A DNA stretch of 58,727 nt, from the NCBI GenBank assembly GCA_016869935.1, contig VGCX01000001.1, forward strand, positions 1-58,727, written 5' to 3'. The stretch is from Alphaproteobacteria bacterium (GTDB lineage Bacteria > Pseudomonadota > Alphaproteobacteria > UBA7879 > VGCX01). A model generated the notes under the pieces. It had not been told where the DNA came from. It saw only the letters and a list, made by a program, of their open reading frames with translations, and searched no databases. Both the position numbers and the translations under genes were made by a program. Numbering within the stretch: the stretch's first letter is position 1; the number at the start of each line of letters is the position of its first letter. Of the stretch, positions 32,385 through 39,333 are shown one piece after another.

Positions 32385-32960
32385 CTAAGACGGAACAGCT
32401 CGTACCTCTAAAACCTCTGGCACATAGTGCTTGAGCATACTTTCAATGCCTGATTTTAGGGTAAAAGATGAACTAGGGCAGCCCGAGCAGGCACCGCGAA
32501 GCTTTAAGAAAACAATACCCTCTTGGAATTTGGAAAAAACAATATCGCCCCCATCGACCGCAACAGCTGGTCGAATACGGGCTTCAATCAGATCTTTGAT
32601 CTGCTCAACAATCTGTAATTCTTCTTCTGTATACGTAATGTCAGTTTCTTCAAGATCCTCATAAATATCAGAAAGAATAGGTTTTTGTGCCAGCAAATGG
32701 TCCATTAAGGTACTTAAAATAAAGGGCTTTAAAGTGTCCCAGTCGGCATCATTATCTTTAGTAATGCTGACAAAGTCTTCCCCAATAAAAACCCGAGTGA
32801 TCCCATCAATGTCAAAAAAGCGTGTGGCAAGGGGGCTTTTTTGGGCCTCTTCCCGTGACGCGAAATCAGCAGATCCTGTCATGAGCAAGATAATACCTGG
32901 AATAAACTTGAGGGTTAAGGGGTTTGGGGTTTCTTGAGTTTGAATAAACATACCATTCAC
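32385..32960 (-). CDS. NFU-type iron-sulfur cluster scaffold/carrier (Nfu_N + NifU C-terminal domain)
   Basis: MFIQTQETPNPLTLKF N-domain and the CSGCPSS cluster motif. The start could instead be 32951. Confidence 0.85.
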   Translation of the reverse strand: MNGMFIQTQETPNPLTLKFIPGIILLMTGSADFASREEAQKSPLATRFFDIDGITRVFIGEDFVSITKDNDADWDTLKPFILSTLMDHLLAQKPILSDIYEDLEETDITYTEEELQIVEQIKDLIEARIRPAVAVDGGDIVFSKFQEGIVFLKLRGACSGCPSSSFTLKSGIESMLKHYVPEVLEVRAVPS

Positions 32961-33050
32961 TATTTCTTAAGGAAAATATAGGAGCTTTTTGGAAAAGCTG
33001 CAAGAGTGAAGCTAATTTTCAAAACCTCAATAGTCTTTTAAAAGCAGAGT

Positions 33051-33073
33051 TTTAAGAAGTTGCGAATAAATCT
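33051..33073. repeat. 23-bp boundary repeat tttaagaagttgcgaataaatct (copy 1), spanning the stop and last codons of the antitoxin
   Basis: Identical to 33854-33876. It encodes the shared C-terminal LFATS* of two otherwise unrelated antitoxins. Confidence 0.9.
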
Positions 33074-33378
33074 TCTTTTGGAACAATTTGGAACTTTAGT
33101 CCTAATCCATCCAAAATCATCCCAATGGTTTCGATTTTTGGTTGACGCTTGGCAGACAAAACTTTGTATAAGTTTTGACGGTTTAATGCCGTTCTTTTAG
33201 CAAGTGCCCCGACCCCACCCTGTGATTCAGTCACATCTTTAATCGCCTTTAAAAAGCAAGCTACGTTATGGTCTCGTTTAAAATCTAGTAATGCTTCTGT
33301 TAGATATAAAGCAGCATCCTGTGGATCTTTAAGCTCCTCAATGTTGTAGGCGTGAAATGATCTGATTGTGTGTTGCAT
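33052..33378 (-). CDS. Addiction-module antidote protein (HTH, HigA-2-like)
   Basis: 108 aa. YNIEELKDPQDAALYL...GGVGALAKRTALNRQNLYKVLS is typical of this antidote family. It is paired with an upstream killer gene. Confidence 0.8.
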   Translation of the reverse strand: MQHTIRSFHAYNIEELKDPQDAALYLTEALLDFKRDHNVACFLKAIKDVTESQGGVGALAKRTALNRQNLYKVLSAKRQPKIETIGMILDGLGLKFQIVPKEDLFATS

Positions 33379-33691
33379 TTTTTATGTCCTTCCAATATCT
33401 AATCGCTTTTTTAATATCTTCGGCTTGAGAAGCCTTATGTCCACCACAAAGAAGAAAAATCGTTAAATCACCTTGTAGCCCAAAATAAACACGGTATCCC
33501 GAGTTAAAGAAAAATCTAAGCTCATAAACACCAAAACCTAAAAATTTATAGCCCCCAAAATGTCCTATTTCTAGTTGTGCGACTCTTTTTCTAATCCTTA
33601 GCTGCACCACTTTATCAAGAGATTTAAGCCAATCTATAAAAGGCTCTCTTTCTTCAAATGTTTTGTAGATAAGAACATGTTTAAAGCTCAA
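33338..33691 (-). CDS. RelE/ParE-superfamily addiction-module killer protein (Gp49/HigB-2-like)
   Basis: 117 aa with a TTG start preceded by AGGAG. Motifs: F..WL..L.......I..R...L..G.FG..K.LG.GVYELR...GYRVYF. Confidence 0.8.
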   Translation of the reverse strand: MSFKHVLIYKTFEEREPFIDWLKSLDKVVQLRIRKRVAQLEIGHFGGYKFLGFGVYELRFFFNSGYRVYFGLQGDLTIFLLCGGHKASQAEDIKKAIRYWKDIKNATHNQIISRLQH

Positions 33692-33707
33692 GACTTACTT
33701 ACTCCTG

Positions 33708-33736
33708 ATAGTATCCTATGGGCGACAATTTGTCAA
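33708..33736 (-). promoter_or_regulatory. Promoter TTGACA-N17-TACTAT with overlapping palindrome GACAA-t-TTGTC for TA cassette 1
   Basis: Read on the minus strand. The palindrome at 33724-33734 overlaps the -35 element. Confidence 0.55.
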
Positions 33737-33748
33737 ATTCTTTAACAA

Positions 33749-33802
33749 ATCATGGAAAGAAGAATGGCTGAAGTCCAGTTGAAAAAAAGGAATTTTTTCA
33801 AC
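33749..33802. repeat. 54-bp repeat with internal hairpin gttgaaaaaa-N5-ttttttcaac (copy 1), upstream of TA cassette 1
   Basis: 53/54 identical to 34541-34594. Confidence 0.9.
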
Positions 33803-33853
33803 TAAATAGTAGGATTTTTATGTCTATTGAGGCGGTTAGTAAAGCTTCTTTAA

Positions 33854-33876
33854 TTTAAGAAGTTGCGAATAAATCT
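33854..33876. repeat. 23-bp boundary repeat (copy 2)
   Basis: Identical to 33051-33073. Confidence 0.9.
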
Positions 33877-34187
33877 CCATGTGATTGGATCAATTTCAAC
33901 TCTGGAGCTATTTTTTTCTCGGCGTGCCACAAGTCAAAGTTCTGCTGCATCCGCAACCAAAAAGAGGGCGTACCGCCACAAAATCGGGCAAGCTTTAGAG
34001 CCATTTCTGGCGTAACGGATGCCTTTTCTGCCATAATTTTATGAAGAGTTTGGCGCGAGATTCTAAGATGAGCCGCCGCTTCTTTGACAGAGAGTTTTAA
34101 AGCCGGCAAAACATCTTCCAAAAGAATAGCCCCAGGATGTGTTGGAGGGCGTATTAAAGGTTCTTTTACAGTATAAATCATCTTCAT
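33855..34187 (-). CDS. higA: HigA-family antitoxin (XRE HTH)
   Basis: 110 aa. THPGAILLEDVL...LSVKEAAAHLRISRQTLHKIMAEKASVTPEMALKLARFCGGTPSFWLRMQ is the canonical HigA/VapI pattern. Confidence 0.85.
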   Translation of the reverse strand: MKMIYTVKEPLIRPPTHPGAILLEDVLPALKLSVKEAAAHLRISRQTLHKIMAEKASVTPEMALKLARFCGGTPSFWLRMQQNFDLWHAEKKIAPELKLIQSHGDLFATS

Positions 34188-34192
34188 CTCCT

Positions 34193-34468
34193 TTAGTGGT
34201 ATTGCTCAAAGTCAACAAGCTTCACCAGTTGATCTTCCCATTCAAACGTCAAACAACAAGGCCCGTTCACGTGAAAGGTAAATCGCAGGGGACTACCTTC
34301 TAATGAATGAAAGTTAAAACCGGCTATGTTCAAATCTTTTAAGGCTTCCGCATTATGTAGCACATCAAGTCTTCGCAAAATTCGCTTATGAAAAGCAGGC
34401 GATATTTTAGCTGTGTGGCCTGTTATAAAAAGCTCTTTTAATCCCTTATGTTTAAAACTTTGAATCAT
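34193..34468 (-). CDS. higB: HigB toxin (plasmid maintenance system killer family)
   Basis: 91 aa. MIQSFKHKGLKELF..G....I........RL..L and the family C-terminus FEQYH. Confidence 0.85.
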   Translation of the reverse strand: MIQSFKHKGLKELFITGHTAKISPAFHKRILRRLDVLHNAEALKDLNIAGFNFHSLEGSPLRFTFHVNGPCCLTFEWEDQLVKLVDFEQYH

Positions 34469-34472
34469 TTTA

Positions 34473-34501
34473 TGAGTAGCCTATTTTACGACATATGTCA
34501 A
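34473..34501 (-). promoter_or_regulatory. Promoter TTGACA-N17-TACTCA with overlapping palindrome GACATATGTC for higBA; near-leaderless
   Basis: Only 4 nt separate the -10 element from the higB ATG and no RBS is visible. The palindrome at 34490-34499 overlaps the -35 element. Confidence 0.5.
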
Positions 34502-34540
34502 TTATTGGTTTACAATTAATGTTTTTATTCCCTTAAAAGA

Positions 34541-34594
34541 ATCATGGAAAGAAGAATGGGTGAAGTCCAGTTGAAAAAAAGGAATTTTTTCAAC
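34541..34594. repeat. 54-bp repeat with internal hairpin (copy 2), upstream of higBA
   Basis: 53/54 identical to 33749-33802. Confidence 0.9.
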
Positions 34595-34666
34595 GAAAAG
34601 GAGAGTTTTAAAAATACAAACTCGAAAGCTACGAGTTTTCTAGTCTTGCCTCTAAACTATTACATT

Positions 34667-35947
34667 TTATAAAGGATGCAAGTCGAAATACTTTAAATCT
34701 GCCAGAGCCTCTCTGACTTCATTTGCAATACTTTCATGGATATACGAGCGATATTCCAAAACCTTTGATAATCTTTCTTGTGCTACTTTTAGATTGGGCC
34801 TCAATATACCTAACCCTTGTAAATCCATTTTACCTAAAAAATAAAGAGCAAGAACCCAGTCCTCTTCAACAATATTTTCTATAGAAAATTTTAATATTTC
34901 TTCAAAATGAAGGCGTGCTTTCTCATAGTTCATTCTTTCATCAGAAAGCTCTATATTACCAAGAATAAGCAAAAAAGAAGCCCTGAAATGATCTGGAATA
35001 TCTTCACATTGAAGACCCTCTAATGCGTACCGCTCAGCCGCTTTAAAGTTTCTATTATTAACCCCCTCTCCTTTAAATTCCATCTGCGCTAGATACAGAA
35101 GAACGATAGGTCTACTATGGTCCTCAACTTTTTTATACAAACCAAGCAAAAGTCTTCTTGCTCCTTTAAAGTCAGGATTTTTATCTTTAAGATTTGTTCG
35201 TTTAATTTGCACTAATCTTAGATGAACATTTATCTTTTCACCAAAAGATAGATGTGAGTTATCCAAATTTCTTTTGTAAACTGATTCCAAATCAACGCTA
35301 TTTGCTAGTTCAATGATTGGTTTTTGCTTTAGCTCAATCTCCATTAAGTAATACAAAGCTTCAAGTTTTAACTCATCATTGTCCCAGGTATACTCAGAAC
35401 TTTCTTTAAATATTTTTTTTGCCTCAGTCATATCAGATGATTCATTTTCGTAAAACAATATAGTGCCCATTAGGTGTTTTGCATAAATAAGATCTTTAGG
35501 ACGCTGAGGTTTGGAATCAATAAATGCCCGCAAATCTTCTCTAAGTTTTTGTCTTTCTCGCTGAGGGCTTATATACCCTCTGATTTCCAATGAAAAATTC
35601 TTTAAGGCACAATATTCTCTCTGTTCTTTTGAAAGATTTTTTGACTCTGACAGAATTGAAAATTCGTCATATACTTCTTGTACAGACCTTGTTGAAACTT
35701 CATCATAAGACCAATAAATAATAAGGCTATAGTATTGTGATAAATGCTTTTCTTGAGAACGTGTTTTTTTGTCTTGAATAATTTCTTGAAATAGCTCATA
35801 TGCTTTTAGGACTTCTTCTTTTCCTCCAGCTTCTTCGTGAAGTAGTTGCACTGCCTCTTTAAATTTAAGATTATCTTTTTTTTCCCGAATGATATACCAA
35901 GCGGTCCAAAATAAAATATGCAATAAAACTTTAGCACTAAAATCCAT
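34667..35947 (-). CDS. Hypothetical helical-repeat (TPR-like) protein with N-terminal TM
   Basis: 426 aa with recurrent about 35-40-aa helical units (A..Y/F...A pattern). The family is not recognised with confidence. Confidence 0.45.
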   Translation of the reverse strand: MDFSAKVLLHILFWTAWYIIREKKDNLKFKEAVQLLHEEAGGKEEVLKAYELFQEIIQDKKTRSQEKHLSQYYSLIIYWSYDEVSTRSVQEVYDEFSILSESKNLSKEQREYCALKNFSLEIRGYISPQRERQKLREDLRAFIDSKPQRPKDLIYAKHLMGTILFYENESSDMTEAKKIFKESSEYTWDNDELKLEALYYLMEIELKQKPIIELANSVDLESVYKRNLDNSHLSFGEKINVHLRLVQIKRTNLKDKNPDFKGARRLLLGLYKKVEDHSRPIVLLYLAQMEFKGEGVNNRNFKAAERYALEGLQCEDIPDHFRASFLLILGNIELSDERMNYEKARLHFEEILKFSIENIVEEDWVLALYFLGKMDLQGLGILRPNLKVAQERLSKVLEYRSYIHESIANEVREALADLKYFDLHPL

Positions 35948-36004: not shown

Positions 36005-36841
36005 CTAAATCATTTCTTTGGGATTAAATTTAATCTCGAAGGTTTTCCACTCAGAGTAGCGATTCTTGGGAAGCCTGAGAGGCGTGCAGGCGGGGGAAAA
36101 GAGAGCACGTTTAGCGCTTTCGGCAGCTGTTCTAAAATAAGGATCATGATGCATGCGACTTTCATCATAAATTTTAACATCCCGAACGACAGCGTCAGGC
36201 CCCATAGAAACTTGAACTGTCACAATCAGCTCATCTGCATGTAGCGCTCCCGCTGGAACATTCCAGCAGCGTTGTAATTGTTGTCGCAGGGCATCCAGCT
36301 CTGAAAGAGAAAGTTTATCTGCAATATTTTCCGATTCAAATGCTTTATCGGTGGCCCGGGAATCATCGACAACATCAACGCGTTTTACTTCTTCGACAGC
36401 TTGCAGGACTGACATAAAGTCATCAGACTTTTCTACTTTCTTCCCTTTTTTATCTTTTTCATTAGGCTTTTTCTTAGGTTTTATATCCGTTTTTACCGAT
36501 TCTTTAGAGGGTTGAGGGGGTATCTTTTTCGCCTTTGGCTGCGGCATACCATCAATAACTTCTTTCTTAGATACTTGAGGTGTTTCTTTTACTTCTACCT
36601 TAGACGCTGATTGCTCTTGCGGGGCCCTTCTAGTTTCCAGTTTTGTTTTAGCAATCGGCTCTTTTATTGGTTGAACTTTTTTCGGGGGCGATGTGGTTAA
36701 ATCTGAAATAGAAACGATTTCAATGGGAATAATAGGAGGCGATTTAAGAGGACGTGTTCTTAAAAAAGGAATATTCACAAAGAGTAGTATCAAAACCACT
36801 ATGTGCAGAAAAGCTGATGAAAGAAGAGCGTTTCGTTCCAT
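36005..36841 (-). CDS. tolA: TolA-like cell envelope integrity protein (TonB_C-like C-terminus)
   Basis: N-terminal TM, a K/P/E-rich linker and a C-terminal LQRCWNVP... domain. It lies directly downstream of tolQ-tolR. Confidence 0.7.
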   Translation of the reverse strand: MERNALLSSAFLHIVVLILLFVNIPFLRTRPLKSPPIIPIEIVSISDLTTSPPKKVQPIKEPIAKTKLETRRAPQEQSASKVEVKETPQVSKKEVIDGMPQPKAKKIPPQPSKESVKTDIKPKKKPNEKDKKGKKVEKSDDFMSVLQAVEEVKRVDVVDDSRATDKAFESENIADKLSLSELDALRQQLQRCWNVPAGALHADELIVTVQVSMGPDAVVRDVKIYDESRMHHDPYFRTAAESAKRALFSPACTPLRLPKNRYSEWKTFEIKFNPKEMI

Positions 36842-38041: not shown

Positions 38042-38443
38042 CTAATTACCTCTTTCTTTAAGTTTTTCTAAAAACTCTGCAGGGAGTCTCATGAGTTTAC
38101 CACTTTGAGCAATAAAGGCCACATCCACCAACAAAACCACCACCTCTTTTCCGTCCCTTTTAATAATTTGTTTAAAAGAAACCTGAGCATTTTGAATTTT
38201 TGTTACGGTTGTTTCCACCACCAAAAGATCATCCAATTTTGCAGATGCCTTATAATTAATTTGTACGCGAGTCACCACAAAGAGGCAATGGGTGCGCTCA
38301 AATAATTCTTGCTGGTTAATGCCGAAGTCCCTTAAAAACTCTGTCCTTGCATGTTCCGCAAAGATCATATAGTGACTGTGATAAACGACACCACCAGTAT
38401 CGGTATGATCGTAATAAACCCGAAGGGAAAAATCATGTTTCAT
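38042..38443 (-). CDS. ybgC: Tol-Pal-associated acyl-CoA thioesterase YbgC (4HBT hotdog)
   Basis: 133 aa with the N-terminal signature VYYDHTDTGGVVYHSHY. Confidence 0.85.
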   Translation of the reverse strand: MKHDFSLRVYYDHTDTGGVVYHSHYMIFAEHARTEFLRDFGINQQELFERTHCLFVVTRVQINYKASAKLDDLLVVETTVTKIQNAQVSFKQIIKRDGKEVVVLLVDVAFIAQSGKLMRLPAEFLEKLKERGN

Positions 38444-38447
38444 CGGT
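38426..38447. repeat. 22-bp direct repeat ggaaaaatcatgtttcatcggt (copy A, contains the ybgC start)
   Basis: Identical to 39312-39333. The two copies flank the Bro-N gene. Confidence 0.9.
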
Positions 38448-39311: not shown

Positions 39312-39333
39312 GGAAAAATCATGTTTCATCGGT
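39312..39333. repeat. 22-bp direct repeat (copy B, contains the ruvB stop)
   Basis: Identical to 38426-38447. Confidence 0.9.

Follow-up and report, generated by a model that had tools for sequence, protein, structure and literature searches.

The window analysed here, the whole 58,727-nt stretch at positions 1 to 58,727 of contig VGCX01000001.1 (assembly GCA_016869935.1, Alphaproteobacteria bacterium), carries two neighbouring toxin-antitoxin (TA) operons, a higBA pair and an HI1419/HI1420-type pair (toxin 1 and antitoxin 1), whose edges share two blocks of nearly identical sequence, termed E and U. We read this region, with a probability of about 0.65, as two autonomous type II TA operons that form a tandem array and have been inherited vertically; their look-alike edges would represent a duplicated junction kept alike by gene conversion. 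All genes of the region lie on the minus strand, in the order tolQ-tolR-tolA, ORF426, a terminator-like hairpin, U2, promoter 2, higB, higA (ending in E2), a spacer, U1, promoter 1, toxin 1, antitoxin 1 (ending in E1) and nfu. The genome to which the window belongs (G000) comprises 1.47 Mb in 170 contigs and is 97% complete. It was compared with two related lineages, L052 and L031, whose nucleotide identity to G000 is about 85% and about 80%, respectively, with a congener from the same genus (G001) and with a genome from another family of the same order (G017). The array, whole or partial, is known from three lineages only, namely G000, L052 and L031.

Block E covers the final codons of each antitoxin gene. 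E1 (33051-33080) contains the last codons of antitoxin 1 (DLFATS), the stop and one flanking base, and its partner E2 (33854-33883) forms the 3′ end of higA (..SHGDLFATS*), so that the C-terminus DLFATS* is common to both antitoxins. As the initial annotation had described, positions 33051-33073 and 33854-33876 are identical at 23/23 nt, and the extended blocks at 27/30. Block U lies upstream of each promoter (U1, 33740-33806; U2, 34532-34598) and agrees at 62/67 positions; the 54-bp core reported earlier (33749-33802 and 34541-34594) is likewise borne out, at 53/54. Both copies consist of an AU-rich hairpin, GTTGAAAAAA-N5-TTTTTTCAAC (33778-33802 in U1, 34570-34594 in U2), and a tract of about 30 nt that is homogenised between them. 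No shuffle of the sequence produced two copies of E or of U. The hairpin, a 25-nt perfect palindrome (GTTGAAA...TTTCAAC), folds in every prediction; it has two G-C pairs and no trailing U-run, and a terminator scan makes no call at it. A role as terminator or insulator is therefore only a guess. Two further resemblances carried less weight than had been supposed. The inverted 11-mer pair bracketing cassette 1 (33025-33035 and 33822-33832) does exist, but as evidence it is near chance level, since the 1.7-kb locus contains 34 inverted 11-mer pairs with at most one mismatch and shuffles contain 14-27. The proposed relatedness of the two promoters is marginal: 72/2000 shuffles score equally well, and both promoters must match the sigma-70 consensus anyway. 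A small plus-strand open reading frame in U (MERRM[AG]EVQLKKRNFFN) was discarded, as neither its start nor its frame is conserved in L031 or L052.

The origin of E can be traced by comparing the C-terminal tails of both antitoxin families. HigA homologues from unrelated contexts end in SHGELFLP, SHGNLFGQ.., NHGELFHI and SHGALFHC, whereas among 26 aligned HI1420-type tails DLFATS occurs only in G000 and L031, the other 24 of the 26 ending in assorted ways. HigA homologues thus end in SHGxLF and HI1420-type proteins otherwise. E is therefore a 3′ end that belongs natively to HigA and that antitoxin 1, of the HI1420 type, acquired as a graft. The opposite direction, with E native to antitoxin 1 and HigA as the recipient, is ruled out by the SHGxLF endings of the HigA homologues. 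In L052 the same tandem array adjoins nfu, antitoxin 1 ends in ..PKENLSTIA* and HigA in ..SHGNLFATS*, and no E block is shared; the tail of the L052 antitoxin 1 is the one that was replaced. L031, on the other hand, presents the order tolQRA, ORF427, an Xre-type helix-turn-helix (HTH) gene on the opposite strand, one U hairpin, promoter 1, antitoxin 1 and tolB. It has neither toxin 1 nor HigBA at the locus, and nevertheless its antitoxin 1 ends in ..PHGDLFATS*. Since this antitoxin bears the graft, the ancestors of L031 must have had HigBA.

The age of the graft can be judged from contigs of the same species. Ten conspecific contigs from other samples were found, at >99.4% identity. All six that span the junction between HigA and toxin 1 show the same arrangement, and the other four, which are shorter, stop inside U1, as expected because the repeat exceeds the assembler's word size. 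In three conspecific contigs E1 reads TTT at a codon that is TTC in G000, the latter being the E2 state. TTT is also found in L031, in a relic of antitoxin 1 before tolB (see below) and in the HigA of L052. As the TTT state is shared that widely, E1 must be old, and the 23/23 identity seen in G000 is owed to a single recent change. The older conspecific variant, present also in L031 and in the relic, rules out that the E1 of G000 arose from an L052-like tail through recent conversion of the whole block.

The second line of evidence comes from U, which was compared over 58 nt from the start of the hairpin and, separately, over the 33 nt after it. Within a genome the two copies are close to each other: U1 and U2 agree at 55/58 positions in G000 (30/33 after the hairpin) and at 52/58 in L052 (31/33). 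Between genomes the corresponding copies are less alike, U1 of G000 matching U1 of L052 at 47/58 (23/33) and U2 matching U2 at 44/58 (22/33). The post-hairpin tract thus exists in a genome-specific version that is present in both copies of each genome, and past CCATGATT the sequences become at once cassette-specific and orthologous between genomes. As the array architecture is common to G000 and L052, the duplication predates their split. These comparisons show concerted evolution of U, a lineage-specific homogenisation since the lineages separated, for which gene conversion would most simply be the process responsible.

Traces of the original junction seem to survive beside the blocks. TTTTTAAAACTCTCCTTTTC, which abuts U2, resembles the stop of antitoxin 1 together with its downstream flank CTTCTTAAAACTCTGCTTTT, and comparable sequence is found ahead of the hairpin in L031 and in each of the two copies of L052. 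In addition, AAAAGCAGAGTTTTAAGAA at 33040-33058, downstream of antitoxin 1, is a 17/19 copy of AAAAGGAGAGTTTTAAAAA at 34596-34614, an E-tail-like relic abutting U2. The ancestral unit may accordingly have consisted of an antitoxin stop, about 15 nt and the hairpin, and may have been duplicated when the second operon joined on; AAAAGCAGAGTTTTAAGAA would then be a relic of the original contiguous junction.

The model that interconnects these observations postulates that the array formed in the gap between tolA and tolB, and that its shared edges are the two halves of one duplicated inter-cassette junction, E being the native last codons and stop of HigA, and U the AU-rich hairpin plus about 30 nt that once lay 3′ of an antitoxin stop. 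Upon joining of the second operon, the HI1420-type antitoxin would have gained the HigA tail and the hairpin region would have come to precede both promoters. Intrachromosomal gene conversion between the direct repeats would subsequently account for near-identity within genomes and drift between species. Crossing-over between the same repeats could also delete a cassette, and the one-cassette state of L031, in which the HigA tail is kept on antitoxin 1, looks like the product of such a U x U deletion; toxin addiction would select against deletions of this kind. In a later rearrangement, common to G000 and L052, tolQRA-ORF426 and the array would have moved beside nfu, leaving a relic of the 3′ end of antitoxin 1 ahead of tolB. 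Within this model, the sequence of events, gene conversion as the cause of the homogenisation, the loss of a cassette from L031 through U x U deletion and whatever function the hairpin may have are inferred.

Both blocks are confined to this locus. In the 1.47-Mb genome, searches with exact and 3-mismatch patterns and with word-7 blastn recovered no third copy of U or E. A relic of antitoxin 1, of about 55-60 nt, that precedes tolB on contig C46 was the sole extra match; we attribute a hairpin-like stretch of 29 nt on C121 to chance. G000 contains three further TA loci of the same families, an HI1419/HI1420 pair (C35:2781-3429) and two HigBA pairs (C12:18409-18969 and C13:6894-7536), the proteins of which are 29-42% identical to those of the window, and neither U nor E is found at them. 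Public collections were scanned for exact matches only, so that diverged copies would be missed, and may lack records close to G000. Under these terms, the hairpin pattern GTTGAAAAARTTCCTTTTTTTCAACTG gave 0 matches in genome_contigs (one genome per GTDB species), and a 23-nt version of the hairpin gave 1 match in metagenome_contigs, in an unrelated context and taken as chance. A literature search found no description of this arrangement. The initial annotation had proposed that simple local duplication of the flanks would be indicated if the blocks were unique to this locus and both cassettes were vertically conserved in all relatives. The blocks are indeed unique to the locus, but conservation of the cassettes does not extend to every relative.

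The place where the array was assembled is revealed by the other half of the Tol-Pal cluster. It had been pointed out that tolB-pal would be expected downstream of tolA, and rightly so: in G000, tolB and pal sit on contig C46. Directly before tolB (C46:6242-6294) lies the relic of the antitoxin 1 3′ end (..PKADLFATF*), followed by GAAATCCTTTTAAA, which is the same junction as that between antitoxin 1 and tolB in L031. The relic is located just past the stop of a 708-aa ShlB/FhaC-like gene and marks the breakpoint between tolB-pal and tolQRA. Since it matches the L031 junction, the array must have been assembled with tolA/ORF426 on one side and tolB on the other, and have lost its link to tolB afterwards. 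The nfu junction, in turn, is common to G000 and L052, and in G001 nfu abuts trxA. As a side note on the same contig, tolB and pal are separated by a gene for an AAA-type ATPase of 488 aa (C46:3212-4678), a further interruption of the Tol-Pal cluster.

The cargo of the gap varies within the genus. G001 carries in its tolA-tolB gap (L019, G001:C11, 7041-7793) a TumE toxin (PF20126) paired with a winged-helix protein that is HVO_A0114/MarR-like (TumA); L031 carries the Xre-type HTH gene and an orphan HI1420-type antitoxin; HigBA and HI1419/HI1420 are the modules of G000 and L052. As no more than about 130 nt separate tolA from tolB in 12/14 other genomes of the order, the gap is a genus-specific landing site for TA modules. 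The initial annotation had envisaged cassette exchange at a fixed site, with different cargos swapped into a common scaffold. Part of this stands, in that the site is variable and a swap of HigBA is possible. The blocks, however, are neither portable boundaries nor a common scaffold, because they are confined to one locus, E is the 3′ end of HigA itself, U is homogenised per lineage and L052 has no shared E.

Several points weigh against vertical inheritance with gene conversion as a full account. None of the events has been observed directly, and their order is weakly constrained, with three lineages carrying the array or part of it. The hairpin is conserved across the three lineages at 22-24 of 25 nt, and the likeness of the U copies may partly reflect function. 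Independent duplication in each lineage would also make paralogues closer than orthologues, although it is disfavoured because the architecture is shared and the cassette-specific flanks are orthologous. In addition, HigBA shows an excess of synonymous divergence between G000 and L052 that is not explained by pure vertical descent. Among identical residues, 86/156 codons of HigBA are unchanged versus 520/693 for ORF426, nfu and cassette 1 (Fisher p = 2e-6), and the nucleotide identity of HigBA is about 76% versus about 85% elsewhere.

This excess makes allele replacement by homologous recombination between the shared flanks possible, and the alternative that survives best is built on such exchange. 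In it, which is the proposal of the initial annotation at its mildest, U and E, or else the conserved neighbours, would serve as homology arms, so that incoming DNA of related strains with another TA allele or family at this site could replace or add a cassette, with no dedicated recombinase. The different gap cargos of G001, L031 and G000/L052 speak for exchange, as does the spacer 3′ of HigA, which is unrelated between G000 and L052. Synonymous divergence exceeding that of ORF426, nfu and cassette 1 points the same way, but dS is noisy for small, fast-evolving TA genes. Moreover, no genome came to light in which U and E enclose any other cargo. The TumE/TumA cassette of G001 is without the blocks, apart from one weakly similar hairpin 3′ of tolA, the six junction-spanning conspecific contigs are identical in content, and in L052 E is not common to both antitoxins. 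Exchange can coexist with the tandem-array reading; as the explanation of the edges we consider it rather unlikely.

It could also be argued that the blocks are alike because they share a function, the hairpin acting as an insulator, terminator or protein-binding site required upstream of each autoregulated TA promoter, and DLFATS as a degradation or interaction tag common to the two antitoxins. In favour of this notion, the hairpin is the best conserved part of U in G000, L052 and L031, one A-to-G change retains pairing as G-U, and weakly similar hairpins are found after tolA in G001 and after pal in G017. Function does not account for the 33 nt after the hairpin, which are alike within genomes and match at only 22-23/33 between them, a pattern that argues for conversion and not for constraint. 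The hairpin's few G-C pairs, the missing U-run and the silence of the terminator scan likewise offer little to a terminator. As for the tail, antitoxin 1 of L052 is under purifying selection despite ending differently, and the tails of HI1420-type homologues are highly variable. Shared function is an improbable explanation, less likely than exchange. The two weakly similar hairpins are themselves worth recording. The G001 hairpin, GTTGAAATTCC..TTCAAC, lies about 27 nt after the tolA stop and is weakly like that of U. In G017, an AU-rich hairpin and the adjacent AGGAGA.TTTTA lie just 3′ of pal (L007, G017:C27, 1500-1545) and share 83% identity with U2 plus flank across 42 nt; this may be a chance match or an old Tol-Pal-associated element.

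The remaining alternatives treat the junction as the site of a recombination system. We think it very improbable that it belongs to a cassette-capture system that has no integrase of its own, or relies on a recombinase in trans, and fills the tolA-tolB gap of this genus with unrelated TA modules. Past capture and exchange would in that case have left their marks in the relic of the E tail ahead of U2 and in the divergence of the HigBA allele. Least probable of all is a site-specific recombination site of the integron attC or Xer/pdif type, with the recombinase encoded elsewhere. The layout of junction, operon, junction, operon and partial junction does recall a cassette array, the E-tail-like relic abuts U2 though no antitoxin precedes it, GTTGCGAATAA in E matches the E. 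coli XerC arm at 9/11, and TA cassettes are common in chromosomal integrons (PMC3827094). Against this, the absence of an integrase noted in the window extends to the contig: a PF00589 search of the genome found tyrosine recombinases only on C5, C2, C62, C120 and C78, so that the XerC/D-like genes and three others all sit on separate contigs. Neither IntI on the contig, nor an attC-type site, nor other cassettes with the same site were found. The hairpin polarity, GTT...AAC, is opposite to that of attC, an imperfect palindrome with R″ (RYYYAAC) and R′ (GTTRRRY); there are no extrahelical bases, and the hairpin falls far short of attC sites, which measure 55-140 nt. A XerD arm is likewise missing. 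The best site pairs the XerC arm at 9/11 with XerD arms at 6/11 and 4/11, which is genome background when scored with the E. coli consensus, from which the host dif may differ; an XerC-like match is expected about 0.4 times by chance in the locus. Neither the genome nor the scanned public collections yielded further copies. An origin of the blocks in a miniature inverted-repeat transposable element or insertion sequence (IS) fits no better, the inverted 11-mers being near chance and other genomic copies absent.

Taken by themselves, both operons are unremarkable representatives of known TA families, each with its own sigma-70 promoter and an operator-like palindrome. That they represent unrelated pairs, HigB/HigA and a Gp49-type system, had been recognised from the start, and scores against curated models bear this out, for toxin 1 through TIGR02683. 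Toxin 2, HigB (34193-34468, minus strand, 91 aa), matches the HigB-like RelE-fold domain PF05015 with 48.5 bits against a cut-off of 27. HigA (33855-34187, minus strand) is encoded directly 3′ of HigB after a 5-nt gap and scores 103.9 bits against 47.7 with TIGR02607; it has 110 aa from the ATG at 34187, or 108 aa from the ATG at 34181, the start chosen by gene callers. Toxin 1 (33338-33691, minus strand, 117 aa), of the HI1419 / Gp49 / RelE-ParE superfamily, matches the upstrm_HI1419 model TIGR02683 with 93.2 bits against 62.85, and falls just under the cut-off of Pfam Gp49 (22 bits vs 23.9). Its start codon is TTG, preceded by AGGAG. Antitoxin 1 (33052-33378, minus strand, 108 aa), an HI1420-type HTH antidote whose gene overlaps that of toxin 1 by 41 nt, matches the dnstrm_HI1420 model PF21716 with 47.6 bits against 27, and stays under the cut-off of TIGR02684 (44.5 bits vs 53.7).

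Promoter 1 (33708-33736, minus strand) consists of TTGACA, 17 nt and TACTAT, with the palindrome GACAATTTGTC (33724-33734) over the -35 element; this palindrome, conserved in L031 and L052, is likely an autorepression operator. Promoter 2 (34473-34501, minus strand), as read from the sequence, consists of TTGACA (34496-34501), 17 nt and TACTCA (34473-34478), with the palindrome GACATATGTC (34490-34499), and is conserved in L052. The higBA mRNA is probably leaderless, since the -10 element TACTCA ends 4 nt before the ATG and no Shine-Dalgarno sequence is present, a layout (34466-34501) that is kept in L052. The dN/dS ratios between G000 and L052 are 0.11 (HigB) and 0.14 (toxin 1) for the toxins, and about 0.04 (HigA) and 0.02 (antitoxin 1) for the antitoxins. 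These values show purifying selection on all four genes, which we read as a sign that they are functional.

Around the operons, the spacer between the HigA stop and U1 (33807-33853) measures 47 nt in G000 and is replaced by about 240 unrelated nt in L052. A terminator-like hairpin with a T-run (34618-34638, minus strand) lies 3′ of ORF426 (34667-35947, minus strand), which encodes a lineage-specific protein with no family match; a protein search found homologues only in its own species and L031, and a partial L052 copy was found otherwise. Upstream follows tolA (36005-36841, minus strand), the last gene of the ybgC-tolQRA operon and the original upstream border of the insertion site. On the other side, nfu (32385-32960, minus strand; Pfam matches Nfu_N and NifU) now borders the array downstream, as a result of the proposed rearrangement.

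Some observations on related elements complete this picture. In G001, a solitary HigA that is 61% identical to that of the window lies between rplI and secG (L020, G001:C1, 5300-5726). It is preceded by a relic of the last codons of HigB (..EQYH*), and therefore HigB has been lost there; the tail differs after ..RHG. The next closest HigBA loci (HigA identity 72%; L054-L057, other alphaproteobacterial metagenome-assembled genomes) lie upstream of an MqsA-like HTH gene and an IS110 transposase, so this HigBA subfamily does travel with mobile DNA elsewhere. Within the window, 22-bp direct repeats, ACCGATGAAACATGATTTTTCC on the coding strand (38426-38447 and 39312-39333), bracket a Bro-N gene at the ruvB/ybgC junction; in L031, ruvB and ybgC overlap and there is no Bro-N insert. 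Here, as in the TA array, duplication of the target leaves the neighbouring genes with intact ends.

The array illustrates that cassettes are not necessarily mobile when unrelated cargo is enclosed by identical boundaries, a caution for scans that look for such boundaries. On a small scale, it clearly exemplifies how the non-coding flanks of unrelated operons evolve in concert, and it includes an antitoxin with the C-terminal codons of another family, the tail of which tolerates replacement. In one uncultured genus of Alphaproteobacteria, moreover, at least four TA-type modules have landed at the tolA-tolB junction, which is otherwise tight. Finally, a TA pair flanked by direct repeats that could delete that pair constitutes a natural test of whether addiction protects repeat-bounded DNA.

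Among known systems, the array most resembles tandem chromosomal type II TA loci of the HigBA and HI1419/HI1420 families, with which it shares the toxin-first order, short overlapping or adjacent genes, and a separate promoter with a palindromic operator for each pair. It differs from them in the duplicated junction common to both operons and in that one antitoxin carries the C-terminal codons of the other family. The likeness to gene-conversion concerted evolution, as in bacterial paralogues and rRNA operons, lies in paralogues that are closer than orthologues and in converted tracts with sharp ends; the tracts found here, however, are about 25-95 nt long, non-coding or gene-terminal, and flank unrelated cargo. 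pdif (XerC/XerD) modules carry TA pairs on Acinetobacter plasmids, and these are likewise discrete TA modules bounded by look-alike short sites, whereas the present locus has no 28-bp XerC-6-XerD site and no inverted sites, and is chromosomal and single. In the Vibrio superintegron, too, unrelated TA pairs are arrayed between similar repeats, and TA modules are thought to stabilise repeat-rich arrays of this kind against deletion (PMC3827094). Unlike that system, the array described here has no IntI, attI or attC-type sites, and its repeats, restricted to one locus, derive from a gene's own 3′ end.

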